From: Candidatus Iainarchaeum sp.
GTDB lineage: Archaea > Iainarchaeota > Iainarchaeia > Iainarchaeales > JACQJH01
Assembly: GCA_016205145.1 (NCBI GenBank)
Contig: JACQJH010000001.1
Location: forward strand, 195,501-259,500
Length of the DNA stretch: 64,000 nucleotides
Direction of reading: 5' to 3'
Made by a program: the position numbers and the translations under genes. Below, in pieces: positions 15,161-62,604 of this stretch. The notes under the pieces were generated by a model. It was not told the DNA's origin and searched no databases. It worked only from the letters and a program-made list of their open reading frames with translations. Within the stretch, counting starts at the first letter, position 1. Each line of letters starts with the position of its first letter.

Positions 15161-15213
15161 GTCAAAGCAAAGTTTAATCCCCTATTTAAGCTTTGCTTTT
15201 TAGCTTTTCGAAC

Positions 15214-15273
15214 CGGCGGTTTCGTCCGCCGGGTCCGAAACCAAGGCGTATTGCTGATGCAATACGCCGAGTA
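15214..15273 (+). repeat. Intergenic H1-H2 element without insertion
   Basis: CGGCGGTTTCGTCCGCCGGG TCCGAAACCAAGGCGTATTGCTGATGCAATACGCCGAGTA. The first 40 nt are identical to the tRNA-Lys trailer. Confidence 0.8.
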
Positions 15274-15341
15274 TGCCAGCATATGATGCAAAAGTGCACA
15301 CTTGGCTTGTATTTGTGCCTGCAACCGGAATCGTTTTTCTT

Positions 15342-38304: not shown

Positions 38305-39154
38305 GGAATGCGAGTTCAACCAGCTTTTGCGCTTCGACCGCCATCTCGAATTCCGTTGCAGCCTGCCTGAATTTTTGTTTGCGCAATCCGATGAATTCAA
38401 GCATCTGGCTGTCGAGCCTTTCCCTTATTTTTTCCGCGTCCACGTTCAGGTTTTTCGCCGCATCCTCTCTTAATTCCCTGCCCGCAAAGTCGGTCACAGT
38501 TATTGTTTCCGCGGCCAGGCCTGCGCCGTCAATGGTTGCGGCCATTGCATTGGCGTCGGACAGGTTCACTGACATGCCGTCCAGTGCCACAATGTTGAGT
38601 TCCAAGACGTAGGCTGCGGTTATTGTGAGCGCGGCCTCTTCCTCAACAAGGCTTTTCGTTTCCGGGACTGTTTTTGCGGAAACGATTTTGCCATAGTTCG
38701 CCTGTTCTTTTTCCGCAAGCCATTGCATGTCTTCAACCATTGATTTCTGGAATTCTGTGAGCGTGGCCTGCGCTATTTTGTCGTCTGAAACCGGCAGTTG
38801 CACCTGGTTTGCCTTCTGCACAAGGCCCTGGACCCTTGAATGCGAATCGTTTGCGAACGCAAGATAGAATTCTTTTTCCTGGCCCGCGGGAATGCCGTTT
38901 GCCGCCGGAGCGGACCGTGACACTTTTATCGCGACGAATGCCGCGAAAAGAAGAATGCTGATCGTTGCAAGTATCACGGCCGTCTTGTTTTCCTTCAGGG
39001 TTTGGCGAAGGCTTTTCTGCGCATGGGCGGGGCTTTTCTTCGCACCGCCGGCCTTTTCTTCGCGGCCTGGCTTTTCGGTTTTTTGGCGGGGCCAGCTTTT
39101 TTTTGCCGCCGGCTTGTGCCCATCCGCCTTTTCCCCGCGTTTTTTTCCATCCAT
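38273..39154 (-). CDS. Hypothetical single-pass membrane protein with basic N-terminal tail
   Basis: K/R/G-rich cytoplasmic tail, a TM anchor (AVILATISILLFAAFVAIKV), then an alpha-helical ectodomain. The track start at 39343 is probably too far upstream; the ATG at 39154 is preferred. Confidence 0.45.
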   Translation of the reverse strand: MDGKKRGEKADGHKPAAKKSWPRQKTEKPGREEKAGGAKKSPAHAQKSLRQTLKENKTAVILATISILLFAAFVAIKVSRSAPAANGIPAGQEKEFYLAFANDSHSRVQGLVQKANQVQLPVSDDKIAQATLTEFQKSMVEDMQWLAEKEQANYGKIVSAKTVPETKSLVEEEAALTITAAYVLELNIVALDGMSVNLSDANAMAATIDGAGLAAETITVTDFAGRELREDAAKNLNVDAEKIRERLDSQMLEFIGLRKQKFRQAATEFEMAVEAQKLVELAFLMTVSEQTVQ

Positions 39155-39210
39155 CCGAAAACCTGTTTTCGCGTTAGTTTTTAAAGGATAACCTACAAAA
39201 ACGGGTCTTA

Positions 39211-41271
39211 ATGGCATTCGAATTTTCGTTGTTTCACGTATTTTTGATGAGTTTATTGTCGCTTGTCTTCGTAGCCGTGCTTGTCCGCTACGTGCTAAGG
39301 AAGGACACCGGCACTGCGCAGATGCGCCAGGTTTCCGATGCAATCAAGGAAGGCGCCAACGCTTTCATGAAGCGCCAGTACACCACGATTGCAATACTGT
39401 CAATTGTGCTTGCAATACTGCTTTACGGCCTCTACCTGTTTTTGGGCAAGAGCCAGACCATTGCAATGATGACCGCCGGCTCTTTCATTCTCGGCGCGTT
39501 CTTTTCCGCTTTGGCGGGCTTCATCGGCATGTGGGTTGCGGTCAGGGCGAATATCCGCACTGCGTCTGCGGCAAAGAGAAGCCTTGGCGAGGCCCTTCTG
39601 GTTTCGTTCCGCGGCGGCGCGGTTTCAGGCATAACAATTGTTGCGTTGTCGCTTTTGGGCGTCAGCCTGATTTACTTTTTGTTCGGCGGCATTGAGCATC
39701 CGACTGAAGTGCCGTTCCTGATTGTAGGATTCGGTTTCGGGGCAAGCTTTGTGGCATTGTTTGCGCAGCTCGGCGGAGGCATTTACACCAAGGCGGCGGA
39801 TGTGGGCGCCGACCTTGTGGGGAAAATCGAGGCCGGCATTCCGGAGGACGATCCGAGAAACCCGGCGGTTATCGCAGACTTGGTCGGCGACAATGTCGGC
39901 GACTGCGCCGGGCGCGGCGCGGACCTGTTTGAAAGCACTGCGGCTGAAAACATCGGTGCAATGATTCTTGGAGTCGCCTTGTATCCTGTTTTCGGAGTCA
40001 ACGGCATACTCTTTCCCCTTGTGGCAAGGTCCTTCGGCCTGCTTGCAAGCATTGTCGGCATTCTTTCGGTGAAAAGCCTCGGCAACGAGGATCCCATGAA
40101 GAGCCTGAACAGGGGCTATTACGTTGCCACGATTCTCGCGGCAATCGCGTTTTATTTTGTCACAATGGCAATGCTCAAGAACATCTGGTTCTTTTATGCA
40201 GGGCTGGTCGGCATAGCCGCAAGCATTCTTTTCGTGTGGATTACAATCTATTACACTGAGCAGGCTTTCGATCCCGTGCGCAGCATTGCCAAGGCATCCG
40301 AAACCGGCCATGCAACGAACATCATCCAGGGCTTTGCGGTTGCGTTGGAGACAACGGTTGTCCCGGTCCTGGTGCTTTCGGCTTCGCTTATCCTGACATA
40401 CAATTTCGGCGTGTGGAGCGGAGTTCCGAACGGCGGATTGTATGGCACGGCGATTGCGACAATGGGAATGCTGAGCACTGCGGCTTTCATTCTTGCAATG
40501 GACACTTTCGGCCCCATAACAGACAATGCCGGCGGCATAATCCAGATGTCGAATGCGCCTGAATCGGTCAGGCGCATCACTGACAGGCTTGATGCTGTGG
40601 GCAACACGACAAAGGCTTTGACCAAAGGCTATGCAATCGGTTCGGCCGCTTTGGCGGCATTCCTGCTTTTCGCGGCTTACATGGATGAAGTGGCGCTTAT
40701 CACGGGCAAGGTTCTGGTCATTGACCTGGCGCAGGTGACGATTTTTGTCGGCGCATTCCTGGGCGCAATGCTCGTGTTTGCGTTTTCTTCCCTTGCAATC
40801 AGGGCTGTGGGCCAGACCGCTTCAACCGTTGTTGAAGAAGTCAGGAGGCAGTTCAAGGAAATCAAGGGCATAATGTCGGGAAAGGCAAAGCCGGATTATG
40901 CGACGTGCGTTGACATCTGCGCAAGAAATTCCCTTGCAGCAATGGTTGCGCCCGGACTCCTGGTCGTTTTCATGACTATCGCTGTCGGCATTCTTTTGAA
41001 GGCCGCGGCTGTTGCCGCTTTTCTGATGGTCGGCACAATCACCGGGATCCTCATGGCCCTGGTTTTGAACACTGGCGGAGGGGCCTGGGACAACGCCAAA
41101 AAATACATTGAGGATGGCGCGCACGGCGGAAAAGGCAGCGAAGCCCACAAGGCAGCCATTACCGGCGACACTTTGGGCGACCCGTTCAAGGATACTGCAG
41201 GGCCGAGCCTGCATGTCCTGGTGAAGCTTTTAGGCACGATAACGCTTGTGCTGGCTCCATTGTTCATCTAA
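39211..41271 (+). CDS. hppA: Membrane-bound H+/Na+-translocating pyrophosphatase
   Basis: 686 aa with the diagnostic motifs GGIYTKAADVGADLVGK, DNVGDCAGRGADLFES and GDTLGDPFKDTAGPS. Confidence 0.95.
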   Translation: MAFEFSLFHVFLMSLLSLVFVAVLVRYVLRKDTGTAQMRQVSDAIKEGANAFMKRQYTTIAILSIVLAILLYGLYLFLGKSQTIAMMTAGSFILGAFFSALAGFIGMWVAVRANIRTASAAKRSLGEALLVSFRGGAVSGITIVALSLLGVSLIYFLFGGIEHPTEVPFLIVGFGFGASFVALFAQLGGGIYTKAADVGADLVGKIEAGIPEDDPRNPAVIADLVGDNVGDCAGRGADLFESTAAENIGAMILGVALYPVFGVNGILFPLVARSFGLLASIVGILSVKSLGNEDPMKSLNRGYYVATILAAIAFYFVTMAMLKNIWFFYAGLVGIAASILFVWITIYYTEQAFDPVRSIAKASETGHATNIIQGFAVALETTVVPVLVLSASLILTYNFGVWSGVPNGGLYGTAIATMGMLSTAAFILAMDTFGPITDNAGGIIQMSNAPESVRRITDRLDAVGNTTKALTKGYAIGSAALAAFLLFAAYMDEVALITGKVLVIDLAQVTIFVGAFLGAMLVFAFSSLAIRAVGQTASTVVEEVRRQFKEIKGIMSGKAKPDYATCVDICARNSLAAMVAPGLLVVFMTIAVGILLKAAAVAAFLMVGTITGILMALVLNTGGGAWDNAKKYIEDGAHGGKGSEAHKAAITGDTLGDPFKDTAGPSLHVLVKLLGTITLVLAPLFI

Positions 41272-41590: not shown

Positions 41591-41736
41591 TGCCCCGGCC
41601 GGGATTCGAACCCGGGTCGCGGCCTCACCCCGCTCTTGAATTTTTTGGAAAATCCTTGAGAGGGCCGAGTGCTTTCGGCAACAGCTGCTTTTTTTTATAA
41701 AAACAAACCGTTTTAGCCGGACTACACCACCGGGGC
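41591..41736 (-). tRNA. tRNA-Glu(CTC) carrying two introns (about 40 nt in the D-loop plus about 31 nt at 37/38)
   Basis: Exon 1 GCCCCGGTGGTGTAGTCCGGCTAAA, exon 2 CACTCGGCCCTCTCA, exon 3 AGGCCGCGACCCGGGTTCGAATCCCGGCCGGGGCA. Once spliced it matches the archaeal tRNA-Glu/Gln scaffold (D-arm GTGTAGTCCGGC, T-arm CCGGGTTCGAATCCCGG). The anticodon stem CGGCC/GGCCG is perfect. Confidence 0.65.
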
Positions 41737-42498
41737 ACTGCAGAATTTTTTGAACCTGTTTATGTGCTTTTTGTTGCTGAACCCGATTTCAGTGAAATAA
41801 CGCAGGACTTCTTTAGAATCTCCCATTGAGCACTGCATTGTATTCCTGTCCTTCTTTTGGGTCCATTTAGATACTCTGTAGCCCAATATTTTAAATGCCT
41901 TTGTTATGCTGCTTTGGATTGTAGGCGATGCCGTGGCGAACCAGATTGTGGGCGTTTTGTGCCTGCGCGTTTTCGGGTAAACGCTTCCGTCAGTGTCAAT
42001 CAATCCCCTGACACAGGCTTTAAGGTAACCGCTTTTTCCAAGAACCCAGCAGGGAATTGCCGCGCCATTCGTGGTTTTATTGCCGTTTTTTATGCCAAAA
42101 TGCATCAGCGTGTGCACCAAATTTTTGCTTTGCTTGAATATGACGACAGCGTTTCCGGTTTTTGGAAATTTTATGCTGAATTCGGTTCCAAACACTTTTT
42201 TGAACAGGCCCGAAGTATAATTTGTCAGATAATCAAAATCGTTCCCGCGATGGCCTATAATTCTTATTTGGTAAATGCTTTTTTCTTTTATAACCTGGCA
42301 GTTTCCGTCGCCAAGCATTATGCCGATAATTTCCGCAAGCTCCGCGCTTTTCTTTTTTGCAAGCAATTTCGGTTTCATCGGCAAGAATTTGCCGTTCTTC
42401 CGCGGCTGCAGCCGGCAATTACCCATAATGTACTGTTGTTTTTGTGGACAAAAGGGGTTTGCCAAGTGGCTTTCCCCTGATTCTTGATTTGGCCTCAC
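41722..42498 (-). CDS. Free-standing LAGLIDADG-family homing endonuclease (two LAGLIDADG motifs)
   Basis: Motif 1 AEIIGIMLGDGN and motif 2 RGLIDTDGSV are separated by about 100 aa, the arrangement of single-chain LAGLIDADG enzymes. The 3' end overlaps the 5' end of tRNA-Glu by about 15 nt. Confidence 0.75.
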   Translation of the reverse strand: MRPNQESGESHLANPFCPQKQQYIMGNCRLQPRKNGKFLPMKPKLLAKKKSAELAEIIGIMLGDGNCQVIKEKSIYQIRIIGHRGNDFDYLTNYTSGLFKKVFGTEFSIKFPKTGNAVVIFKQSKNLVHTLMHFGIKNGNKTTNGAAIPCWVLGKSGYLKACVRGLIDTDGSVYPKTRRHKTPTIWFATASPTIQSSITKAFKILGYRVSKWTQKKDRNTMQCSMGDSKEVLRYFTEIGFSNKKHINRFKKFCSAPVV

Positions 42499-46932: not shown

Positions 46933-47041
46933 TGCCGGTGGCGAGATATGAACTCGCGGCCTCTTGATTATGAGTTTCGCCCCGCAACACAAAAAAGCTG
47001 AATTGCAGTCAAGCGCTCTAACCAGGCTGAGCTACACCGGC
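46933..47041 (-). tRNA. tRNA-Cys(GCA) with ~34-nt intron at 37/38 (intron 46969..47002)
   Basis: The 5' exon GCCGGTGTAGCTCAGCCTGGTTAGAGCGCTTGACTGCAA and the 3' exon ATCAAGAGGCCGCGAGTTCATATCTCGCCACCGGCA give perfect acceptor and anticodon stems. The T-loop TTCATAT is slightly atypical. A TATA-like CTTTTAAAAGCC sits about 35 nt upstream. Confidence 0.6.
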
Positions 47042-52280: not shown

Positions 52281-53555
52281 TTATTCCAAATCCCAAAGCT
52301 CTTTGAGCGCGTCAAGCCTGACTGTTTTCTGTTCGCCGGTTTCAAGGTTTTTGACTGCAAGCTCTTTTTTCTGCAGTTCGTCTTCGCCGGCAATAATCGC
52401 GAATTTGATACCCTGCTTGCTTGCGAATTCAAGGTTTTTTGAAATGCCCCTTCCAACCAAATCAATGTCAGTGTTCAGGCCCAGCCTTCTCATTTCCTGC
52501 ACGATTTTAAGGCATTCTTTTTGCGTTTTTCCGATCGGAATGACAAAGAATTTCACCGGGTTTTCTACGCCGAGCTTTTCTTCGACGACATCAAGGAGCC
52601 TGTCGATTCCAAAAGAAATGCCGATTGCCGGTGTAGGCGAACCGCCATAGCTTTCAATGAGATTGTCATATCGGCCGCCCCCGCCGCAGGAAATTCCCGC
52701 ACTTGAAACCTCGAAAACGTTTCCAGTGTAATATTCCAATCCGCGTGCCAGGCTAAGGTCGACTTTTACTTTTTTTGACAGGCCGTTTTCTTCAAGCAAA
52801 TCCAATAGTTCTTTGAGTTCCTTGAACCCGTCTTTTTCTTTCACGTCCTTGGGCAGGCCTTCGAAATCGTTTTTCTTGAGCGTTTCAATGATCTTGTCGG
52901 AAATGCCTTTTTGTTCCAATTCCTTCCTGACTTCTTCTTCGCCGATTTTTTCCAGTTTGTCCAGGCTCCTGAAACAGTCCTTGATTTGGCGTTCTTCCAC
53001 GCCATTCGCCTGCGCGACGGCTTCGAGCAGTTTTCTGTTATTCAGCCTTATGTAGAAATCAACGTTTATTTCTGAAAAAAATTCGGCTGCAAGCGCAATC
53101 AGTTCAAAGTCAGCGAAAACGCTTTTCACTCCGATGATGTCGGCATCCGCCTGTGTAAACTCGCGATACCTTTTTGCGCCCGGCCTGTCATACCGGTAAA
53201 CCCTTTCGATCTGGTAGCGCTTGAACGGTTTCGGCAGCTGCGGGTTTGTTGCTATGACACGTGCCAATGGAACCGTCAGGTCGAAGCGCAGGCCAAGCTC
53301 TCTCTCGGACTTGTCCTTGAAGTAGTAGATTTCTTCCTTGATTGCCTCGCCGCCAGAGCCTTTCTTTGCAAGCAAGGCGAAGTCTTCCACGACGGGCGTC
53401 TGCATTGGCTGGAAACCGTATTTTTCAAAGATGCGCCTGGCTAAACCTTCGAGGAAAAGTTTTTTGCGCGCCTGTTCGGGCAGGATGTCGCGCATTCCCC
53501 TTATCGCCTGGAATTTTTCTTCAGCCATGCAATTCACTTTCAGATTTCCTGTCAA
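52281..53555 (-). CDS. hisS: Histidyl-tRNA synthetase
   Basis: Class II aaRS motifs and HisRS-specific blocks (FQAIRGMRDILP, FKRYQIERVYRYDRP, GGGRYDNL). Confidence 0.9.
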   Translation of the reverse strand: MTGNLKVNCMAEEKFQAIRGMRDILPEQARKKLFLEGLARRIFEKYGFQPMQTPVVEDFALLAKKGSGGEAIKEEIYYFKDKSERELGLRFDLTVPLARVIATNPQLPKPFKRYQIERVYRYDRPGAKRYREFTQADADIIGVKSVFADFELIALAAEFFSEINVDFYIRLNNRKLLEAVAQANGVEERQIKDCFRSLDKLEKIGEEEVRKELEQKGISDKIIETLKKNDFEGLPKDVKEKDGFKELKELLDLLEENGLSKKVKVDLSLARGLEYYTGNVFEVSSAGISCGGGGRYDNLIESYGGSPTPAIGISFGIDRLLDVVEEKLGVENPVKFFVIPIGKTQKECLKIVQEMRRLGLNTDIDLVGRGISKNLEFASKQGIKFAIIAGEDELQKKELAVKNLETGEQKTVRLDALKELWDLE

Positions 53556-54333: not shown

Positions 54334-54716
54334 TTACTTTTTTGCTTTTTTTGCCTCATTCATTTTCGCTTTTGCTTTAAGGATTTGCCCTATCTCCGCG
54401 GCCGGCGCTTTTTGGTCGAACCTGATTTGAATGGTTTTTTTTCCGGTCACATAACCTTTTTCTTCGAGCGCTTTGCGGTCTTTACTTTGAAGCGCGAACG
54501 CCAGGCCGAAGCCGGCGTGGCTCTTGAATGCGGCAAACCCGGCAAGAAGGCCCTGGTATTTGTAGAATGGCACGCCCCAGCTGATGCTTTCCTCCGCCTT
54601 TGGCACGGCTGATTTGATTATTTTCCTGATTTCCTTGAGCGTCGGCTGCGCTTCTATGCCTGCGCCGGCAATGTACTCGTCGACGTTTTTTGCGCTGTAA
54701 TTTTTCACTATTCCAC
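54334..54716 (-). CDS. DUF1801 (YdhG/YjbR-like) domain protein
   Basis: C-terminal 125 aa of track ORF 54334..54993 ([16 protein letters not shown]...[28 protein letters not shown]). The upstream part of that ORF overlaps hisG in another frame. The likely start is a GTG near 54716. Confidence 0.5.
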
Positions 54717-55604
54717 GACCTTGTTCAAGGGAAACTCGACTATGCCTTCCGCGCCGGCACCCTTCAGTTTCGGAATGAGCGTCCTGACGTCGTCTATTTT
54801 GACGATTGTGAGAACGTCGAACCAGCCTTCCTTGGAAAGCTTTGAAACCGTTGGATTGTTCAATGATGGCAGGACTTTGAGGACTTTTTGCAGGTTTTTT
54901 TCCTGCACGTTCATCATCAACCCCGCAAGGGTTTGCGCCGCGATTGCGCCTTTGAGCAGGGTTGCGATTTCGTCGATTTTCTTTCTCTTCCACAAATCCT
55001 TTGCCGCGCCTTTGTTTGCAATCAGTTTCGTGTTGCTTTCCATGAGCGTTTCGACAATGCGCAGGCCGTTCGCGCGCAAACTGCTTCCGGTTTCAGTCAC
55101 TTCAACGATTGCGTCGGCAAGCGTCGGCGGCTTGACTTCGGTTGCGCCCCATGAAAATTCCACTTCGGCTTTGACGTTGTTTTTTGCAAGCCATTCCTTT
55201 GTGAATCCCACAAGTTCGGTTGCGATCCTCTTTCCCTGCAGGTCCTTCACGCCTTTGATTTTCGAGTCGTTCGGCACAGCCAGAACCCATTTGACCCTTC
55301 CAAGGCCGGATTTTGCGTAAACAAGGTCCGCGATTTCGTCAACGCTTGACTTGTTTTCAAGAATCCAGTCCTTTCCCGTCAAGCCAAGGTCGATTGCGCC
55401 CTGTTCGACGTAACGCGACATTTCCTGCGCCCTGATGAGCACGCACTCTATTTCATCGTCGTTTATTTTCGGGTAATACGAGCGCTCTTCCGCGCGGATG
55501 TCATAACCGGCTTTCTTGAACAATTCTATTGTCGAATTCTGCAGGCTTCCCTTGGGGATGCCAAGCTTGAGTTTTTTGCCGCTTCCATCTTCTTTGCCTT
55601 TCAT
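54708..55604 (-). CDS. hisG: ATP phosphoribosyltransferase (long form with regulatory domain)
   Basis: 298 aa ([23 protein letters not shown] ... [13 protein letters not shown]) plus a C-terminal ACT-like region. Confidence 0.9.
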
Positions 55605-56650
55605 TTCAATTCCTCCGCTTTCCTGAAAAAACAGCTCCTCTTGCCCGTGTGACAGGCAACATTGCCTTCCTGCTTCACTTTAAGAAGAATCGCGTCGTTG
55701 TCGCAGTCAAATCTCACTTCCCTGACAATCTGGAAGTTTCCGGAAGTTTCGCCTTTCACCCATAATTTTTGCCTGCTTCTGCTCCAATAGCAGGCCTTTC
55801 CTTCTTTCAGGGTGCGGCGAAGGCTTTCCCTGTTCATGTATGCAAGCATAAGCACTTCTCCCGTATTCCAGTCCTGTGCGATTGCAGGCAGCAGGCCGTT
55901 TCCCTTTTCAAAGTCAAGTTCATCGGGCAGGATGTCGGATAATTTTATCTTGCTAGTGTACAATGACATGCCCAATGCGCAGTCCACGCCGATGCCTTCA
56001 AGCCTGCGCGCCTCTTCAAGCGAGGCAATCCCGCCGGCGGCAATGATGCGGTTTTTCGTTGCCTTGCGAAGCCTTTGCACCGCTTCAAAGTCGATGCCTT
56101 TCATGAGGCCCTCTTTTTCCACGCACGTGAACAGGAATGCAGAGCACAGGCCTTCAAATTCTTTCGCCTTTTGCAAATAATCCGCCCCGGTTTTTTCCTG
56201 CCAGCCTTTCACAACAACCTCGCCTTTCCATGAATCCAATGCAACAATGATTTTTTCCTTTCCAATTTGCGCGCCAAGCTTTTGCAGGAATTCCTTGTTT
56301 GCGGCACTGCCGATGATGACGCGCTTTGCGCCAGCGCCGATGAGCGCTTTGGCTTTTTCCACGCTGTCGATTCCGCCGCCGGTGTTTGCATTCACGACAG
56401 AGCAGATTTTTTTGACGGTTGCGAGATTTGAGCCTATGCGTTTTGCCGCGTCCAAATCAATGACCTGCACTTCCCTGAAAGCGGAGAATTTTTCCGCGAA
56501 TTTTTCGGGAGCAGACGCTATGCGAATCTTCTCGGTTTTGCCCTGCTGCAGCTGGACAACTTTTCTGCCTTTCAAGTCAATGCTTGGCAACAACATTTTC
56601 ATTCCCTCACTACAATTCCCTTTTCTTTCAGGTATGCCTTGACTTTCCAC
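55601..56650 (-). CDS. hisA-hisI: Bifunctional fusion: ProFAR isomerase (HisA) + phosphoribosyl-AMP cyclohydrolase (HisI)
   Basis: The N-terminal ~240 aa are a HisA TIM barrel ([15 protein letters not shown] ... GGGIDS ... IAAGGIAS). The C-terminal ~105 aa are HisI ([50 protein letters not shown] ... [11 protein letters not shown] ... ACHTG). Confidence 0.8.
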
Positions 56651-57378
56651 ACCGGAAACTCGTTGAAATGGAAAATGCTTGCGGCAAGCGCGGCATCGGC
56701 CTTTCCTGTTTCAAATACATCCACAAAGCTTTCAAGGTTTCCCCCGCCCCCGCTTGCAATGACTGGAACGTTAACGCTTTCCGAAACCGCTTTTGTCAGT
56801 TCGAGGTCGAAGCCCTCTTTTGTTCCGTCGCGGTCCATGCTTGTCAGGAGGATTTCGCCTGCGCCAAGTTCAACCGCTTCTTTCGCCCATTCGAGGGCGT
56901 TTTTTCCCGTGAATTTGCGGCCGCCGTATTTCGAGCACTCCCACCAGACTTTTCCTTTCTCTTCCCTTTTTTTCGCGTCAATCGCCAGCACGACTGCCTG
57001 GTTGCCATACGCTTTTGCAATCTCCGAAATGAGGCGAGGCCTTTCCAGCGCGGCAGTGTTTATGCTTACCTTGTCCGCGCCTGCTTCGAACACACTTTTT
57101 GCGTCCGCCAGTGAGCGTATTCCGCCCCCGACAGTTAACGGCACGAAAACTTCCTGCGCGGTTTTTTCGATTACGTCAACCATTGTTTCTCTTCTCTCGG
57201 AACTTGCGGTGATGTCCAGAAAGACGATTTCGTCAGCGCCCTGCGCGTAATACGCTTCGGCCTGCTCCCACGGCACGCCGGCGTATTTTATTTCCTTGAA
57301 CTGGACTCCTTTGACGACTCTTCCTTGCGCGACCGAAAGGTCGCAGTCCAGACAGGGAATGATTCGTTTTGCGAGCAT
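56599..57378 (-). CDS. hisF: Imidazole glycerol phosphate synthase cyclase subunit
   Basis: 259 aa beginning [16 protein letters not shown], with HisF barrel motifs ([11 protein letters not shown] ... GGGIRS). Confidence 0.9.
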
Positions 57379-57390
57379 TTGAAACCAGTT

Positions 57391-57795
57391 TTATTCTCTA
57401 TTCATTAATTCAGTTTGAACGCGGGTGTACATTGTAATTAATCCATTTGCAATAATGTCCGTTGTGTGTTCGGGCTGTTCTGTCGTGCGTTCGTGTTCTA
57501 TTTCAATGAACCGGTTTATCCTTTCCATTGTGCTTTCAAGGACTTCCGTGGGAATGCTTGTGAGCGGCCTATTGCGTTCAACCAATCTTAGTGTCAGCCT
57601 TTCGAGTTGCTGGTCTGGGCCCAATCCGGTTTCCAGCAATTTTTGCAGTTCCGGAATCACATGTTGCTGGGCCGGCATATCCGTTCCGGGGACGGTATGT
57701 GTCGATTCTCTCACATCTTGCCCAAAATAACCCTGCGCTATATTCCGGAAACGTTCTTTAAGCCCTTCCGGGTGCGCCTCATGTCGTCTCTCCAT
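57391..57795 (-). CDS. Hypothetical 134-aa protein embedded in the his operon
   Basis: ORF between hisF and hisH on the same strand with short spacers. No similarity to HisE that I can recognise. Confidence 0.4.
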   Translation of the reverse strand: MERRHEAHPEGLKERFRNIAQGYFGQDVRESTHTVPGTDMPAQQHVIPELQKLLETGLGPDQQLERLTLRLVERNRPLTSIPTEVLESTMERINRFIEIEHERTTEQPEHTTDIIANGLITMYTRVQTELMNRE

Positions 57796-57804
57796 AGTAT
57801 CACC

Positions 57805-58407
57805 TCAAATTTCAACAAAATTCTCCAGCACCTTAAGTCCAGCGGCTCCGCTTTTTTCCGGGTGGAATTGCACGGCAAAAACGTTGTCTTTTTCAACAGC
57901 GGAACAGTATTTTCCGCCGTAATCGGTTTCGCCAGAGACGATGTCCTTGTCGAACGGCTTGGCATAATAGCCGTGCACGAAATAAAAGAACGAATTGTCG
58001 GGAACATCCTCGAGCAGCGCGCTTTCCTTTGCCTTTTCGACCTGGTTCCAGCCGATCTGGGGAACTTTCAGGTTTTTTCCTTCAAATTTTTCAACCGTGC
58101 CCTGCAAAACTTTCAGGCCTTCGCTTTCAGGGCTTTCCGCGCTTTCCTCGAACAGCGCCTGGAGGCCGATGCAGATGCCGAGGAAAGGCTTTCCTTCCTC
58201 GATTGCCCATTCGATTGCGTAGTCCAGTTTTTTTTCGCGCAGTTCGCGCATTGCCTCGCCGAAATTGCCCACGCCGGGAAAAACGACCTTGCTCGCTTTT
58301 CCCACCTGTTCAGGAGTTTTCGCAATGACTGCCTTTTCGCCGATTTTTCGGAAGGCGTTGCGGACGCTCTGCAAATTGCCCCTGCCATAATCAATGATTG
58401 CAATCAT
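57805..58407 (-). CDS. hisH: Imidazole glycerol phosphate synthase glutaminase subunit
   Basis: Class I GATase triad context (GICIGLQ ... HPE) in a 200-aa protein. Confidence 0.9.
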   Translation of the reverse strand: MIAIIDYGRGNLQSVRNAFRKIGEKAVIAKTPEQVGKASKVVFPGVGNFGEAMRELREKKLDYAIEWAIEEGKPFLGICIGLQALFEESAESPESEGLKVLQGTVEKFEGKNLKVPQIGWNQVEKAKESALLEDVPDNSFFYFVHGYYAKPFDKDIVSGETDYGGKYCSAVEKDNVFAVQFHPEKSGAAGLKVLENFVEI

Positions 58408-59036
58408 AGCATTCCCTTGGTGCTCGGCAAAAACTTCTGCCGCCTGTCAAATTCAACCGCGCAACGCAACGCGCGCGCGAAAGCCTTGAACAGCGCTTCA
58501 ACCAGGTGGTGTGCATTCTTTCCGTAAACAACTTTGACGTGGATGTTTGCCTTCAGCTCGTTTGCCACTGCCTGGAAGAATTCTTCCACAAGCTCGGTCG
58601 GAAACCCGCCGATGCGGTCGAGCGGAAACTTTGCGTCGAACACAAGCTTTGGCCTGCCGCTCAAATCAATCGCGCAGAACGCAAGGCTTTCATCCATTGG
58701 CACGTATTCCCAGCCGTACCTTGCAATGCCCTTTTTGTCGCCAAGCGCTTTAGCTATTGCCTGTCCGAGGACAATGCCGGTATCCTCGACAGTGTGGTGC
58801 AAATCCACTTCCAAGTCGCCTTTTGCCTCAAGCGAAACGTCGATGAGGCTGTGCTTGGAGAAAAGTTCGAGCATGTGGTTGAAGAACCCGATTCCGGTTT
58901 CAATTTCATACCTGCCTTCGCCGTCAAGGTTTACCGAGGCTTTGATTTTGGTTTCAGTGGTGTTCCGTTCAATCTCCGCTTTCCTCACGAATGATTTCGC
59001 CTTTTTTTCGTTTGCCTTTCCTTTGCCTTCGCTCAT
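58404..59036 (-). CDS. hisB: Imidazoleglycerol-phosphate dehydratase (monofunctional)
   Basis: IGPD motifs (GIGFFNHMLE ... DLHHTVEDTGI). Confidence 0.9.
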   Translation of the reverse strand: MSEGKGKANEKKAKSFVRKAEIERNTTETKIKASVNLDGEGRYEIETGIGFFNHMLELFSKHSLIDVSLEAKGDLEVDLHHTVEDTGIVLGQAIAKALGDKKGIARYGWEYVPMDESLAFCAIDLSGRPKLVFDAKFPLDRIGGFPTELVEEFFQAVANELKANIHVKVVYGKNAHHLVEALFKAFARALRCAVEFDRRQKFLPSTKGML

Positions 59037-60124
59037 TTCGTTTCACCCAAAACCTTTTCCAGCGCGGAGCAGAATTTTTTCATCTGTTCTGGCGTGCCGA
59101 TGCTGATGCGGATGCAGCCTTCCAGTCTCTCATAACCGCTCCTGTCCCTTACAAGGAAGCCTTTTTCCTTAAGCTTTTCGGCGATTGCTTTGGCGTTTTT
59201 GCCAAAGCGTGCGACGAGAAAATTCGACTTGCTCGGAAAGCGCTTCACGCCTTTTTCGTCAAGGAACTTTTCAAGAATTGCGCGCCCCGCTTCAACCTGT
59301 TTCACATAATCCTGCATGTAAGCCGGGTCCTTCAGCGCTTCCGTTGCCGCGAGCGCGCTCAAAGCGGTGATGCTGTAAGGCGACTTCGCCTTTTTCAGCG
59401 TTGAAATGATTTTTTCGTTTCCCAGAGCGTATCCGATGCGCATTCCGCCGAGGCCCATTGCCTTTGAAAAGGTTTTGAGCACGACAAGGTTGTCGAACTC
59501 TCCAATCCTGCCGGCAACGGTTTCTTTCGTGAATTCCGAGTATGCTTCGTCGACGATTGCCAGGCAGCCTTCCGCCCGCGCGGCCCTGATGATTTCGATG
59601 AGGTCTTTTTCCGGAATTTCGGTGGCAGTCGGATTGTTGGGGTTGCAGAGAATGACTGCCCGGCTGCCCTTGATTTCCGCGAGCACTTTTTGCGTCGGAA
59701 ATGAGAGGTCTTCATTGTACAGCGGCTTTGCAATTTTCGCCCCTTGCAGTTCAGCGTAAAAGTAAAACATGGCAAAGCTCGGAGTCGGAATCACGATCTT
59801 TCCGTTGCCCACAAAGCATTCAATGCATCCGCGGATGGCCTCATCCGAGCCGTTGAAGGGCACGGCGTTTTCCGGCTTCGCGTTGTTGTAATCCGCAATC
59901 GCTTTTGTCAGCTCCGAGTATTCCGGATACGCGGACAGCCTTTCCGCTGAAACGTTTTTGATTGCCGTGAGAACGCGCGGGCTTGGGCCGAGAGTGTTTT
60001 CGTTGAAGTCAAGCCTCATTTTGCCCAGCCTGCTGGCTGTCGGAGGATTGTACGGCTTGAGCTTTTTCACATTGCCGGTTTCGGAAATCATTTCATTCAC
60101 TTCCCGCATGCTCCGGCTTTCCAA
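59033..60124 (-). CDS. hisC: Histidinol-phosphate aminotransferase
   Basis: Class II aminotransferase, 363 aa, with the PLP-Lys context FSKAMGLGGMRIGY. Confidence 0.9.
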   Translation of the reverse strand: MESRSMREVNEMISETGNVKKLKPYNPPTASRLGKMRLDFNENTLGPSPRVLTAIKNVSAERLSAYPEYSELTKAIADYNNAKPENAVPFNGSDEAIRGCIECFVGNGKIVIPTPSFAMFYFYAELQGAKIAKPLYNEDLSFPTQKVLAEIKGSRAVILCNPNNPTATEIPEKDLIEIIRAARAEGCLAIVDEAYSEFTKETVAGRIGEFDNLVVLKTFSKAMGLGGMRIGYALGNEKIISTLKKAKSPYSITALSALAATEALKDPAYMQDYVKQVEAGRAILEKFLDEKGVKRFPSKSNFLVARFGKNAKAIAEKLKEKGFLVRDRSGYERLEGCIRISIGTPEQMKKFCSALEKVLGETK

Positions 60125-62303
60125 AAAGCTTTGGCAGTTCGTTTATGTCTTTCAACACGGCGTCCGCGCCTTTTTCCAAATAAAATTTTTTGCCCGGCGA
60201 GAACGCGCCCGTCAAAACCATTGCGCAAAAATTGCCTTTCAGCGGGCCGCCCGCGTTTTTCACCATTTCAAGGTCGTCAATCATGTCACCCACATACAAA
60301 ACCTTTTCGGCATTGAGCCTTTTTTTCATCCATTCCAGCGGCGCGGCGTTTGGTTTCAACTTTCCGCCGGTTTCGCTTGCGGTTTCATCCGAAAAAATGT
60401 TTTCTTTTGCAATCGCCGCTGCAAGGCCGCATCTTTCAAGGCAAAGCATTGCTTCGTTGAACGTGCGCCCGGTTATCACGCCGAGCTTTTTGCCGTTGTT
60501 TTTCAGCCACTCGACGGTTTTCCTTGAAACAATCATTTTTTCGTTTTCGCAAAGCCCTTTTTTCACGCCCAATCTTGCCGGTTTGCCGAAAAACTCCGTG
60601 AAACGCCTTTCGCCGAGGTATAGTTCCTCGAACGCGTCCATGATTTTTTCGCGGTCGTATTCGCGTGCAATGCTTTCCCACTTTTGGCCGGCAATCTGCC
60701 TTGCAGCCCTTTCTGCGCCTTCAAAGCCTTTGTCCAAGCCGATTTTCGGGGCGAATTCTTCCCCGCTTACGCGAAAGCCGTTTTTTTGCAGCAACGCAAC
60801 CAGGCTTAAAGCATAGGCAACGTGCCAGTCGTTGTTGAATCCCCCCAAGCGCTTGAACAAAGCGGTTTTCTGCACCGGAAACCTTTTTCCGTACAAAACT
60901 TCGACCGCTTTCACTGTTGCAATCCTGTAAGTGTTGCTTACATCTGCCAGCACGCCGTCAATGTCCAAAACAATCGCGTCAACGCCAGAAAACCCGCTTC
61001 CGGGCGCGCTTTTTCCGCGGTCCAAGCGTATTTCAACGCTTTTTTTGTGCGCTTCAAGGCCCTCGGAATCAGCCATTGCACCAATCGTTTTTTGCAGGCC
61101 TTTCAGGCCTTTTTCAGAGATTTTCTGGAACGCGATGACCTTGACAAAGTCCCTTGCCGACAGGCCAGCGCGTTGTTTTGCCGTTCCGCCGGTTGGCAGG
61201 ACGTGATTTGTGCCGGAACAGTAGTCTCCCGCGGCTACCGGGCTGAAGTCTCCGAGAAAAACGCTTCCAGCCGCGCTTATTTGCGGCAGAAGCCTTTCCG
61301 CCCTGCCGAAAAGCACCAAGTGTTCCGGGCCGATTTGGTTCACGATGCCCGCGCAGTCCTGCAGATCCCTTGCAATGACAACAGCCGAATTGGTTTCAAG
61401 CGCCCTGCGTGCTGTTTCGGCATTCTTTGCTGTTTCAAGCTGAACCGAAAGCGCGGCTTTGGCTTTTTCTGCGAGCGCCCTGTCCGGCGTGACAAGAATG
61501 CAGACGCTGTTTGAGTCGTGCTCGGCCTGCGTCAAAAGCTCGGCCGCAACGATTTTCGCGTCGGCTTTCGAGTCCGCTACAACGCACACCTCGCTCGGCC
61601 CGGCAACAAAATCAATGGAAACCTGGCCGAAAACAAGCCTTTTCGCGGTTGCGACAAAAACGTTTCCCGGCCCGGCAATCTTTTGCACGCGCGGCACGGT
61701 TTTGGTGCCGAATGCCATTGCGGCAATTGCCTGGCTTCCGCCCAGAGTGAAAATCCTGTCCACGCCGGCGATGTCGGCTGCGACAAGCACGAGCGGGTTA
61801 GTGCCATCCTTTTTCGGCGGAGTGCACATCACAATCTCTTTCACGCCCGCGGCTTTCGCAGGCAAGGCATTCATCAAAACGCTTGAAGGCAAAGGATACC
61901 TGCCCGCTGGAACATAAATGCCGACAACGTCCAATGGCCTGACAATTTCCCCAACAACCACGCCTTGCGCATTTTCAGTTTTCCATTCTTTCGGCAGCTG
62001 CCTTTTTGCAAAAGCAAGAATGTTTTTTTTCGCGAGCTTCAAGGCTTCAACCTGTGCCTTCGAAACTTTGGAATAAGCCGCCTTAATCTCCGCACTGCTC
62101 ACTTCCATGCTTTCAGGGGAAAGCCGCACGCCATCGAATTTTTCCGAAAACGCAATCAGCGCGGAATCGCCTTTTTCCCTGACTTCCGCGATAATGCTTC
62201 GGACGGTTTCTTCGACATTCTTGTCCGGCGCCTCCAGCCCGGCAAGGAACGCTTCAAGCTCTCCGGGTTTTTCGGCGGTTATTTCTTTCAGCATGTAGAC
62301 CAC
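60093..62303 (-). CDS. hisD: Fusion: histidinol dehydrogenase (HisD) + C-terminal HAD-superfamily phosphatase domain (candidate histidinol-phosphatase)
   Basis: The N-terminal ~430 aa are HisD (zinc/NAD motifs QAEHDS ... DYCSGTNHVLPT). The C-terminal ~300 aa carry HAD motifs I (VLDIDGVLAD), II (VITGR) and III/IV (YVGDMIDDLEMV). Confidence 0.85.
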   Translation of the reverse strand: MVYMLKEITAEKPGELEAFLAGLEAPDKNVEETVRSIIAEVREKGDSALIAFSEKFDGVRLSPESMEVSSAEIKAAYSKVSKAQVEALKLAKKNILAFAKRQLPKEWKTENAQGVVVGEIVRPLDVVGIYVPAGRYPLPSSVLMNALPAKAAGVKEIVMCTPPKKDGTNPLVLVAADIAGVDRIFTLGGSQAIAAMAFGTKTVPRVQKIAGPGNVFVATAKRLVFGQVSIDFVAGPSEVCVVADSKADAKIVAAELLTQAEHDSNSVCILVTPDRALAEKAKAALSVQLETAKNAETARRALETNSAVVIARDLQDCAGIVNQIGPEHLVLFGRAERLLPQISAAGSVFLGDFSPVAAGDYCSGTNHVLPTGGTAKQRAGLSARDFVKVIAFQKISEKGLKGLQKTIGAMADSEGLEAHKKSVEIRLDRGKSAPGSGFSGVDAIVLDIDGVLADVSNTYRIATVKAVEVLYGKRFPVQKTALFKRLGGFNNDWHVAYALSLVALLQKNGFRVSGEEFAPKIGLDKGFEGAERAARQIAGQKWESIAREYDREKIMDAFEELYLGERRFTEFFGKPARLGVKKGLCENEKMIVSRKTVEWLKNNGKKLGVITGRTFNEAMLCLERCGLAAAIAKENIFSDETASETGGKLKPNAAPLEWMKKRLNAEKVLYVGDMIDDLEMVKNAGGPLKGNFCAMVLTGAFSPGKKFYLEKGADAVLKDINELPKLFGKPEHAGSE

Positions 62304-62305
62304 GT

Positions 62306-62368
62306 GCCAAGTAAAGGCTTACTTGGCATATTGCGCAGCAATATGCCTTGGTTTCGCACCCGCCGGGC
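62306..62368 (-). repeat. tRNA-His 3' trailer: H1'-H2 hairpins between tRNA-His and the hisD start
   Basis: CGCCGTCATCGCCCGGCGGG TGCGAAACCAAGGCATATTGCTGCGCAATATGCCAAGTAAG. The same 35-nt start CTCGCCGTCATCGCCCGGCGGGTGCGAAACCAAGGC recurs at 12601..12636 on the plus strand. Confidence 0.75.
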
Positions 62369-62604
62369 GATGACGGCGAGGCCTGTGCCGGGAATCGAGC
62401 CCGGGCCGGGGGATAACTGCAACCATGCGGTTTTTCGCAAACCTTTTTGGAAAAGGTTTCTTGCGGTTTTTCGCAAACCTTTTTGGAAAAGGTTTCTTGC
62501 GGTTTTTCGCAAACCTTTTTGGAAAAGGTTTCTTGCGGTTTTTCGCAAACCTTTTTCCAAAAGGTTTCCACAGTCCCCAATGCTGCCACTACACCACACA
62601 AGCC
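62369..62604 (-). tRNA. tRNA-His(GTG) with encoded G-1 and a 164-nt intron at 37/38 (intron 62404..62567)
   Basis: The 5' exon is G-1 plus GCTTGTGTGGTGTAGTGGCAGCATTGGGGACTGTGG. The 3' exon ATCCCCCGGCCCGGGCTCGATTCCCGGCACAGGCC gives a perfect anticodon stem GGGGA/TCCCC, and the acceptor stem has one G-U. The discriminator is C73, as expected for tRNA-His. Intron flanks AAACC...GGTT can pair as in BHB motifs. Confidence 0.75.
62416..62559 (-). repeat. Four tandem 36-nt palindromic repeats making up most of the tRNA-His intron
   Basis: Three copies of GCGGTTTTTCGCAAACCTTTTTGGAAAAGGTTTCTT plus one variant; each unit contains an AAACC...GGTTT inverted repeat. The track ORFs 62254..62601(-) and 62425..62778(+) are periodic-translation artefacts of this array. 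Confidence 0.9.

Follow-up and report, generated by a model that had tools for sequence, protein, structure and literature searches.

Removal of the phosphate from L-histidinol phosphate by histidinol-phosphate phosphatase (HolPase) is the non-conserved step of histidine biosynthesis and the commonest unexplained gap in the reconstruction of amino-acid pathways, being missing in 42 of 208 prototrophs (GapMind, 2026). An archaeal HolPase of the HAD type was characterised only in 2024, and the largest branch of that family, in which Arg replaces an Asp of the fingerprint, was left as "likely" (PMC10804674). Some genomes of the Diapherotrites (DPANN) have a compact his operon in which all steps but one are recognisable. 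The locus described here, in a stretch of 64,000 nucleotides from Candidatus Iainarchaeum sp. (hereafter the window), raises the question of whether this step is carried out by a phosphatase domain attached to the histidinol dehydrogenase HisD, which is encoded on the minus strand as follows:

60093..62303, minus strand: complete ORF joining hisD to a predicted HolPase (736 aa with GTG 62303 as start; TGA stop at 60093-60095)
61020..62294, minus strand: HisD (histidinol dehydrogenase) domain, residues 4-428 (PF00815, TIGR00069, 9LBV)
60984..61019, minus strand: inter-domain linker, RGKSAPGSGFSG, residues 429-440, rich in Gly, Ser and Pro
60096..60983, minus strand: HAD-IA phosphatase domain, residues 441-736, TIGR01548-like, predicted HolPase

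In the ORF listing this frame is open throughout, with a GTG start and no interruption, and its layout is HisD (residues 1-428), a 12-residue linker and the HAD domain (residues 441-736). A protein from a Ca. Diapherotrites MAG (P0168) is 100% identical to it and starts at NCBI with the ATG at 62294, three codons in, giving 733 aa; this ATG is a more likely start than the GTG at 62303. At NCBI, P0168 carries no annotation beyond "histidinol dehydrogenase". The first-pass annotation had described the gene as HisD with a C-terminal HAD-superfamily domain, and this description is borne out by the single 736-aa frame and the domains found with Pfam and NCBIfam. The DxDGVL, T/S and GDxxxD motifs that it named were verified by translation as DIDGVL (447-452), T611 and GDMIDD (672-677).

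The N-terminal half is, on strong homology, predicted to be a histidinol dehydrogenase. Histidinol_dh PF00815 covers residues 27-427 (E = 1e-157, Pfam), TIGR00069 hisD gives 511.5 bits (NCBIfam, cutoff 243.8), and the domain aligns end to end with the solved HisD of PDB 9LBV (its residues 20-432 of 438, E = 1e-107). The motifs AGPSE (234), QAEHD (259), GDYCSG (359), NHVLPT (366) and LEAH (416-419) are intact, and those of QAEHD, GDY...NHVLPT and the C-terminal His are, by comparison with E. coli HisD, presumably Zn-binding or catalytic. A 2002 study by Barbosa et al. is said to have found that the C-terminal tail of E. coli HisD gives a Zn ligand to the active site of the partner subunit.

In the C-terminal half, the HAD model PF00702 matches residues 441-685 (E = 7e-13, Pfam), and the positions that matter most for comparison with nmHisN (Nmar_1556 of Nitrosopumilus maritimus) and toHisN (Thermococcus onnurineus), both HolPases by experiment (PMC10804674), are these:

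60948..60965, minus strand: HAD motif I, DIDGVL (447-452), with Asp447 as predicted nucleophile and Asp449 as predicted general acid/base
60924..60929, minus strand: cap fingerprint Tyr459-Arg460, 12-13 residues past the nucleophile, corresponding to Y24-D25 of nmHisN, with Arg as in cluster II
60825..60854, minus strand: cap fingerprint Lys484, then GGFNNDW (487-493) with Asp492, corresponding to K56...E64 of nmHisN and R...D of toHisN
60465..60482, minus strand: HAD motif II, GVITGR, with Thr611
60351..60356, minus strand: HAD motif III, Lys650-Pro651
60273..60290, minus strand: HAD motif IV, GDMIDD (672-677), with Asp673, Asp676 and Asp677 as predicted Mg2+ ligands

D447/D449, T611, K650 and GDMIDD are invariant throughout our alignment (A1). 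Among HAD models, TIGR01548 (HAD-SF-IA-hyp1) leads by more than 75 bits, but its score with the isolated domain, 115.4 bits (E = 2e-33), falls short of the curated cutoff of 140.2; by sequence, the label "TIGR01548-like" is the one that fits this putative phosphatase best. The same model gives 139.5 bits for P0019 and 126.7 bits for P0020, two standalone relatives, and 219 bits for the haloarchaeal P0287. The AF2 model of the domain (pLDDT 89) shows one cap, built solely from 7-8 helices (domain residues 26-41, 47-56, 62-77, 84-91, 96-118, 121-133 and 135-142, and a short one at 154-157), all falling between strand 1 and motif II. This model matches 213 PDB HAD structures at E ≤ 1e-3, and the best cap-bearing matches are 1QYI and Tt82 of Thermococcus thioreducens (6IAH); in the latter, cap and core are both aligned (phmmer E = 9e-8, Foldseek E = 6e-12, target-normalised TM 0.82, 26% identity). 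Other types of HAD HolPase fit poorly. The model for E. coli-type HisB-N (HAD-IIIA, TIGR01656) reaches 21.1 bits (cutoff 84.15) and covers motifs III-IV only, and the domain has a large C1 cap. For the paHisN type (HAD-IB, PSP-like, with a D16-D18-Y47 fingerprint), TIGR01491 gives 19.6 bits against 151.9, and PSP structures match only the core of the domain (E = 0.0018).

Like nmHisN, the HAD half combines a HAD core with one large all-helical cap after motif I (7 helices in toHisN and 9 in nmHisN; Kinateder et al., 2024, PMC10804674), a Tyr 12 residues past the nucleophile, and a basic residue with an acidic one eight residues further on. When mapped via 6IAH and the published fingerprint with its motif spacing, rather than against the nmHisN sequence itself, Y459, K484 and D492 match the nmHisN pattern and Arg460 stands where nmHisN has Asp25, resulting in Y-R-K-D. 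The change from Glu64 to Asp492 is conservative and is also found in toHisN. The Y-R-K-D variant is that of the Euryarchaeota cluster II and of delta-proteobacterial clusters, and the Arg in place of Asp25 was considered to make the cluster II call less reliable, hence "likely HolPases" (Kinateder et al., 2024, PMC10804674). Tt82 has Y18-D19...R48...D56, which is the Y-D-R-D pattern reported for toHisN, and is presumably its orthologue; unlike the window domain, toHisN/Tt82 is shorter (240 aa) and standalone, with a smaller cap and with Asp, not Arg, following the Tyr. Taken together, the HMM matches, the published fingerprint with its spacing, 6IAH and the gene context group the domain with the archaeal nmHisN/toHisN family and not with unrelated phosphatases, which supports its assignment as a probable TIGR01548-like member of that HolPase family rather than a generic hydrolase.

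The fusion gene heads an operon with the order hisD::HAD-hisC-hisB-hisH-hisF-hisA::hisI-hisG, whose remaining members are:

59033..60124, minus strand: hisC, encoding histidinol-phosphate aminotransferase, the source of the HolPase substrate (Pfam)
58404..59036, minus strand: hisB, IGPD domain only, without an N-terminal HolPase domain (Pfam)
54708..58407, minus strand: all genes of the rest of the operon
57805-58407, minus strand: hisH
57391-57795, minus strand: orf134, no function assigned
56599-57378, minus strand: hisF
55601-56650, minus strand: hisA::hisI fusion
54708-55604, minus strand: hisG

A candidate ATG of hisC at 60091 lies 1 nt past the stop codon of the fusion. No PHP (PF02811) or inositol monophosphatase (PF00459) domain was found in the approximately 50 ORFs of at least 150 aa in the 64-kb window. 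Thus, with the HAD domain fused to hisD, hisB reduced to IGPD and no other HolPase in the window, the earlier proposal that the fusion places the HolPase step within the operon is supported, and neither an alternative HolPase of the PHP or IMPase type nor a grouping of the domain with unrelated phosphatases was found to oppose it there. A PRA-PH (HisE) domain was found neither in the window operon nor in two colinear operons (L082 and L083). We also considered orf134 as a hidden HisE and rejected it, as it had no BLASTP similarity to a HisIE and no Pfam match even at E = 10; its single-sequence AF2 model has a pLDDT of 52.

The origin of the fusion can be read from its relatives. P0019 and P0020, the two closest standalone relatives (38-42% identical), come from operons L082 and L083, where their genes lie directly between hisD and hisC. 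In these operons hisD and the HAD gene are separate, and the order is otherwise colinear with that of the window operon; in a neighbour-joining tree the fusions are sister to P0019 and P0020. Because of this gene position, the window protein is shown to be a fusion of neighbouring genes, from one lineage of Diapherotrites: in an ancestral hisD-HAD-hisC operon, the stop codon of hisD was lost together with a spacer of 22-23 bp, and the stretch became the 12-residue flexible linker, which stands in place of the stop codon, the spacer and the first HAD codons of the split operons. Searching for the fusion elsewhere, as had been suggested, recovered it from two further independent metagenome assemblies, namely as a 730-aa protein (P0018, 85% identical) on an ENA contig (L081) and as a third copy (81-86% identical) on a JGI contig (L089, also L090), where HisD, linker and HAD again form the same unbroken frame. 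Given that the window comes from a metagenome-assembled genome and that the nearest relatives are separate genes just 22-23 bp apart, a sequencing or assembly error might have erased the hisD stop codon between two genuinely separate genes. Such an error would, however, have had to occur in three independent assemblies (NCBI MAG, ENA and JGI) that diverge by 15-19%, all of which show one frame and conserve the length of the Gly/Ser/Pro-rich linker, and a single base error could not join the genes because the frames of hisD and HAD differ in the split operons. We therefore give this reading practically no credence. An exhaustive search with the HAD domain and a search with the full-length protein gave two protein clusters with the HisD::HAD architecture among the matches listed. 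The fusion is rare and, apparently, unreported so far; both enzyme families were already known, and the domain architecture is new.

The same HAD family is also fused to other enzymes of the pathway, as HisC::HAD, HisG::HisC::HAD and HAD::IGPD (P0158). The HAD half of every one of these fusions has TIGR01548 as its best match, and the aminotransferase halves of the HisC fusions reach, or come close to, the cutoff of TIGR01141 (hisC). In L085/L086 the order is hisD-hisC::HAD-hisB-hisG-hisH-hisA-hisF-hisIE, an operon that is complete for all ten steps only if the HAD domain is the HolPase. At eight metagenome loci, relatives that are 24-29% identical lie inside his operons, mostly between hisC and hisB, which is also the reported position of Nmar_1556 (PMC10804674). 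nmHisN, a standalone monomer, thus shares with the HAD half a gene position within the his cluster and differs from the fusion in lying between hisC and hisB.

Proteins named "TIGR01548 family HAD-type hydrolase" at NCBI account for 2,213 clusters at E ≤ 1e-20. Those of Halobacteria, equivalent to cluster II, have the same Y-R-K-D and GGFNNDW residues as the window domain and are 33-38% identical to it over the full domain. Unlike the fusion, their genes are standalone, not linked to his genes and located upstream of npdG, with the npdG synteny found at 44 of 80 haloarchaeal loci; leuS adjacency, tried as another synteny marker, held at only one of the 80 and was set aside. The only his gene within 6 kb was hisH (3 of 80 loci), and this missing linkage is uninformative rather than negative because the his genes of haloarchaea are dispersed. 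In Haloferax volcanii, transposon disruption of HVO_0431, encoding a HAD hydrolase, leads to histidine auxotrophy (PMC4300041). With npdG being HVO_0433, HVO_0431 is linked to the TIGR01548 family by this synteny and not by sequence, the H. volcanii orthologue being absent from the best 120 of the 2,213 matches.

Operon structure, family grouping and the contexts of relatives all support the proposal of the first-pass annotation that the HAD domain is a candidate histidinol-phosphatase. Its specificity for L-histidinol phosphate is predicted from comparative evidence, and the fusion very probably catalyses the final three steps on the way to histidine as a bifunctional, or formally trifunctional, enzyme. 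The HAD domain would be a Mg2+-dependent HolPase of the nmHisN/toHisN/TIGR01548 type. Asp447 would attack the phosphate of L-histidinol phosphate, the product of the HisC encoded directly downstream, with Asp449 as the likely general acid/base; Thr611 and Lys650 would stabilise the transition state, Asp673 and Asp677 would hold Mg2+, and Tyr459, Arg460, Lys484 and Asp492 of the large cap would recognise that end of the substrate which carries the imidazole and amino groups. L-Histidinol would then be oxidised twice by the N-terminal HisD (NAD+, Zn2+) to L-histidine. The fusion also ensures 1:1 expression and tethers the phosphatase about 20 residues from His419 (LEAH) in the HisD tail; kinetic coupling, which the first-pass annotation had also raised, and direct channelling of histidinol between the two active sites are conjecture. 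The HolPase activity of nmHisN was measured with a kcat/KM of 1.1e4 M-1 s-1 (PMC10804674).

The HAD domain could instead be a phosphatase of other or broad specificity, acting on phosphoglycolate, a sugar phosphate or pyrophosphate, and its fusion to HisD a neutral accident of adjacency with no role in histidine biosynthesis. Tt82, the closest solved relative, was reportedly described as a phosphatase that accepts diverse substrates. NCBIfam models for phosphoglycolate phosphatase and PpaX match the domain weakly (20-34 bits, far under their cutoffs), and the HAD superfamily is known to be promiscuous and frequently mis-annotated (PMC10804674). One accident is nevertheless insufficient because the family has been joined independently to HisC, HisG-HisC and IGPD and placed repeatedly in his operons of many unrelated lineages; moreover, its experimentally validated members are HolPases, of which nmHisN rejected nine other phosphoesters (PMC10804674). 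A role outside histidine biosynthesis is accordingly improbable. Some HAD enzymes are pyrophosphatases, and with PRA-PH not found in the window operon, L082 and L083, the weak PpaX match could also be taken to mean that the domain replaces phosphoribosyl-ATP pyrophosphohydrolase (HisE), a step missing in 9% of prototrophs (GapMind). Yet the HisC::HAD of L085/L086 coexists with a normal HisIE carrying PRA-PH, the partners and neighbours of the family are the late-step enzymes HisC, HisD and HisB, and its characterised members are HolPases, so that substitution for HisE is very improbable indeed.

The Arg at the Asp25 position might, in turn, mean that the Y-R-K-D clade, to which the window fusion, the haloarchaeal TIGR01548 proteins, HisC::HAD and HAD::IGPD belong, has changed its substrate. 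Members of the clade would dephosphorylate imidazole-acetol phosphate, the IGPD product, after which HisC would transaminate the imidazole acetol and so form histidinol for oxidation by HisD. Pfeiffer and Dyall-Smith proposed this order as a possibility for haloarchaea (PMC8305020, supplement), and the substrate panel of nmHisN did not include imidazole-acetol phosphate (PMC10804674). The charge reversal from Asp25 to Arg could make the site less favourable for the ammonium group of histidinol phosphate, and the HAD::IGPD fusion P0158 exists. However, fusion with HisD, or with HisC at its C-terminus, suits the canonical order at least equally, the HisC halves are ordinary TIGR01141 equivalogs, and the delta-proteobacterial and euryarchaeal Y-R-K-D proteins retain all other fingerprint residues of validated HolPases. 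The swapped order also has no known precedent. We regard it as unlikely, and judge a substrate switch marked by the Arg to be similarly doubtful; if true, it would represent a variant sequence of steps in an otherwise universal pathway.

HisD::HAD and its split relatives, the HisC::HAD, HisG::HisC::HAD and HAD::IGPD fusions and the synteny link to HVO_0431 together provide independent Rosetta-stone and context evidence for a role of the Arg branch in histidine biosynthesis. The HolPase step could then be annotated in Halobacteria, DPANN archaea and several uncultured lineages. The fusion itself is predicted to be a natural one-polypeptide catalyst for three consecutive steps and would be a handy construct for tests of specificity and channelling.

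Multifunctional His proteins of other organisms resemble the fusion in part. E. coli HisB (HisN-B) likewise has a HAD-superfamily HolPase joined to another enzyme of the pathway within the his operon, but its phosphatase is of the HAD IIIA 'DDDD' type, essentially capless and N-terminal, and it joins non-adjacent steps, whereas the window fusion joins consecutive activities. Fungal HIS4 (HisIE-HisD) and the heptafunctional His protein of Acanthamoeba also contain HisD within a multifunctional polypeptide; in contrast to the fusion, these proteins are eukaryotic, lack a HolPase and have HisD as their C-terminal module.

The first-pass annotation had proposed that HisD is fused here to a HAD-superfamily phosphatase domain with identifiable catalytic motifs. 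This was borne out: a single open reading frame encodes both domains, which were resolved as follows.

60093-62303, minus strand: hisD::HAD open reading frame, uninterrupted, 736 codons
Residues 27-427: HisD domain (Pfam PF00815, E 1e-157; NCBIfam TIGR00069, 511 bits, cutoff 244)
Residues 441-685 and beyond: HAD hydrolase domain (PF00702, E 7e-13)

NCBI starts the identical protein (P0168, 733 aa, 100% identity) at the ATG at 62294, and the public annotation of the fusion protein names HisD only, not the HAD half. Solved HisD structures align end to end with the HisD half (9LBV, E 1e-107), which retains the QAEHD, GDYxxGxNHVLPT and C-terminal LEAH motifs. All four catalytic motifs of a HAD hydrolase are found in the other half (DIDGVL 447-452, Thr611, Lys650 and GDMIDD 672-677), for which the best specific NCBIfam model was TIGR01548, at 115 bits and under its cutoff of 140.

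The same architecture was found in a protein of 730 aa with 85% identity (P0018), encoded on an ENA metagenome contig (L081) and followed by hisC and hisB. A JGI contig (L089) carries an unbroken HisD-linker-HAD frame up to its end, and a second contig of that metagenome (L090) carries on with HAD-hisC-hisB. The nearest standalone HAD relatives, P0019 of another Diapherotrites MAG (38% identity to the window HAD) and P0020 (42%), are encoded by genes of their own, each placed exactly between hisD and hisC. The split-form operons (L082 and L083) have the order hisD-HAD-hisC-hisB-hisH-hisF-hisA-hisI-hisG with hisS adjacent and are otherwise colinear with the window; a gap of 22-23 bp and a change of frame separate their hisD and HAD genes. 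The standalone HisD proteins end in "...AVKKRLGE*" or "...AVKMRMK*", and the equivalent "...KSVEIRLD428" of the window protein leads through the linker RGKSAPGSGFSG to VDAIVLDIDG, the first strand of the HAD. In a neighbor-joining tree, the two fusions are sister to the two split forms. Given the position of the split forms, the linker junction and this tree, the window protein stems from a lineage-specific joining of two neighboring operon genes. Two large protein searches returned only two clusters with the HisD::HAD architecture among the matches listed. It should be added that a word-indexed search with the HAD domain alone missed both P0168 and P0018, despite their 100 and 85% identity, so negatives from the word index are to be taken cautiously; both were recovered by a full-length query and by an exhaustive HMMER search.

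The latter search, of 1.84 billion representatives, identified 408 relatives of the HAD domain at E <= 1e-10, with the common signature D.DGV..DV..S[Y/F][R/D]...[K/R]..GGFNNDW. The AF2 model of the domain (pLDDT 89, pTM 0.85) has a Rossmann core and, inserted behind motif I, a single large cap built of 7-8 helices. In Foldseek comparisons, only two solved structures matched both cap and core, the uncharacterized 1QYI and 6IAH, which is a Thermococcus thioreducens phosphatase (Tt82; 26% identity, target-normalized TM 0.82, phmmer E 9e-8); other matches were generic HAD-IA cores. Nmar_1556 (nmHisN), a specific histidinol-phosphate phosphatase (HolPase), is likewise a HAD protein with a single cap, of nine helices, and is encoded between hisC and hisB (PMC10804674). 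Its fingerprint was defined as Y24-D25-K56-E64, the earlier-characterized Thermococcus toHisN has Y-D-R-D, and Y-R-K-D was found in the large Euryarchaeota "cluster II" and in delta-proteobacterial clusters (PMC10804674). Aligned to 6IAH, the window protein has Y459-R460...K484...D492 opposite Y18-D19...R48...D56 of Tt82. The spacing is that of nmHisN, with the Tyr 12 residues beyond the nucleophile and the acidic residue 8 positions on from the basic one. Given this pairing and spacing, the window HAD is, as judged from sequence, probably a Y-R-K-D (cluster II-type) member of the nmHisN/toHisN HolPase family. Among the best 150 representatives, 41 had the Y-R-K-D fingerprint and 16 had Y-D-R-D. 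The E. coli HisB-N type was ruled out (21 bits to TIGR01656, whose cutoff is 84), and profile and structure comparison placed the domain outside the PSP-like paHisN, PHP and IMPase types.

Relatives of the HAD domain are also fused to other proteins.

P0056, P0092, P0097, P0110, P0142 and P0149: class I/II aminotransferase-HAD
P0087, 764 aa: HisG-aminotransferase-HAD (HisG-HisC-HAD)
P0158, 440 aa: HAD-IGPD, its HAD of TIGR01548 type and not E. coli type
P0023, 436 aa: UPF0146-HAD

By score, the aminotransferase halves rank as TIGR01141 hisC equivalogs (269-331 bits, cutoff 277), and TIGR01548 was the best match of every HAD half (109-134 bits), that of the IGPD fusion included. Among the his loci of relatives, one (L084) has hisD-hisC::HAD and two (L085 and L086) have hisD-hisC::HAD-hisB-hisG-hisH-hisA-hisF-hisIE-hisS; in these two, the ten steps are complete only with the HAD as HolPase. 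At a further locus (L088), a Y-D-R-D member follows hisF-hisI, and eight metagenome loci contain relatives of 24-29% identity within his operons, mostly as hisC-HAD-hisB, the arrangement of Nmar_1556. In the window, hisB is IGPD alone, a candidate hisC start lies 1 nt past the stop codon of the fusion, and no PHP or IMPase domain was found in any ORF of at least 150 aa across the 64 kb.

Genetic observations in haloarchaea also bear on this family. Transposon insertion in HVO_0431 of Haloferax volcanii, a "HAD superfamily hydrolase," caused histidine auxotrophy (PMC4300041), and curators singled it out as the candidate for the one pathway step still unfilled (PMC4300041, PMC8305020). Of 80 haloarchaeal loci, 44 have npdG downstream of the TIGR01548 gene in the same orientation (median gap ~690 bp; 365-939 bp in the Haloferacaceae loci), and this npdG ORF was verified as F420:NADP oxidoreductase (1JAX, E 1.5e-39). 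Since npdG of H. volcanii is HVO_0433, this pairing makes it very likely that HVO_0431 is the TIGR01548 member.

The domains, their intact motifs, the place in the operon and the origin of the fusion are shown; the substrate specificity is predicted from family membership and context. In the likeliest mechanism, HisC would produce L-histidinol phosphate, the HAD domain with Mg2+ would hydrolyze it via an Asp447 phospho-enzyme intermediate, and the HisD domain would oxidize the resulting histidinol twice to histidine. The fusion ensures stoichiometric co-expression and tethers the phosphatase ~20 residues from His419 in the HisD C-terminal tail; true substrate channeling is our conjecture.

Other readings of the fusion were weighed against this one. 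An accidental fusion to a phosphatase of unrelated specificity is very improbable, given the recurrent his fusions and his contexts of the HAD relatives. The same observations speak against the HAD replacing an unrecognized HisE, which we regard as highly improbable. A swap in the order of reactions, in which the HAD would act on imidazole-acetol phosphate, was raised for haloarchaea (PMC8305020, supplement) and is compatible with the Asp-to-Arg change in the fingerprint; it is nonetheless very unlikely, if only slightly more so than an unrelated specificity. Least credible of all is an assembly artefact, which three divergent independent assemblies rule out.

HisD and HAD-type HolPases are both known enzyme families. 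A HolPase role for this HAD clade had already been put forward, as "likely" for cluster II, in the biochemical work of 2024 (PMC10804674), and was likewise foreshadowed by the HVO_0431 phenotype. The HisD::HolPase architecture appears to be new, as it is in neither the his-gene fusion review (PMC1963479), the 2024 archaeal fusion-protein survey (PMC11237513) nor the Acanthamoeba multifunctional protein (PMC6029752). The HisD, HisC, HisG-HisC and IGPD fusions jointly provide Rosetta-stone evidence for the Y-R-K-D branch that is, within the searchable literature, new as far as shown. The fusion, a predicted natural three-step enzyme, helps to close a common annotation gap; it does not amount to a novel type of system.

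Several further features mark the his region of the window.

55601-56650, minus strand: hisA::hisI fusion, 349 aa (His_biosynth 20-235, PRA-CH 268-342)
57391-57795, minus strand: 134-aa ORF filling the 426-bp hisH-hisF gap on the coding strand
52281-53555, minus strand: hisS, separated from the his operon by a methyltransferase, a DUF1801 ORF and tRNA-Thr
62426-62569: perfect tandem repeat of a 36-bp unit, four copies (98% matches; none expected by chance)

In L082 and L083, hisA and hisI are separate, slightly overlapping genes. A few DPANN assemblies carry HisA/F-HisIE fusions according to the 2024 survey, which reported none with HisD (PMC11237513); unlike the HisA/F-HisIE proteins, the window fusion is without the PRA-PH (HisE) part. 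No hisE (PRA-PH, PF01503) was recognizable in the window operon (54708-62303), L082 or L083, and this second common gap step is therefore unaccounted for in the visible sequence; L085 and L086 have a normal hisIE. The 134-aa ORF drew no Pfam match at a threshold as loose as E 10 and does not resemble HisIE; its single-sequence AF2 model is all-helical and unreliable (pLDDT 52). The split-form operons are without this insert, their hisH-hisF spacing being only 0-12 bp. A conserved his-hisS linkage is seen in L082, L083 and L085, where hisS directly adjoins the operon. L082 (GCA_964540145.1) also encodes a small second HAD-IA hydrolase (5708-6319, 203 aa) ~370 bp upstream of hisD, which is absent from the window. 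The 36-bp repeats, which may form a regulatory array of the his operon, lie roughly 125-270 bp ahead of the hisD::HAD start, and every unit holds the palindrome AAACCTTTT-n-AAAAGGTTT. Two more short hairpin-forming palindromes lie right before the start codon (~62313-62347).

Elsewhere in the window, the genes for RNA polymerase subunits B and A are split. This, the best HisD matches and the two presumably intron-containing tRNA genes listed below confirm an archaeal source. At E 1e-4, Pfam gave no match for the ORFs at 12763-15585 (minus strand, 940 aa), 36883-38304 (plus strand, 473 aa) and 38273-39343 (minus strand, 356 aa). Two tRNA genes were detected by Rfam and not by ARAGORN.

41591-41736, minus strand: tRNA gene, 146 nt
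46933-47041, minus strand: tRNA gene, 109 nt

Both presumably contain introns. An ORF with a LAGLIDADG_3 domain (41722-42498, minus strand) terminates within the 146-nt match, at its 5' edge.
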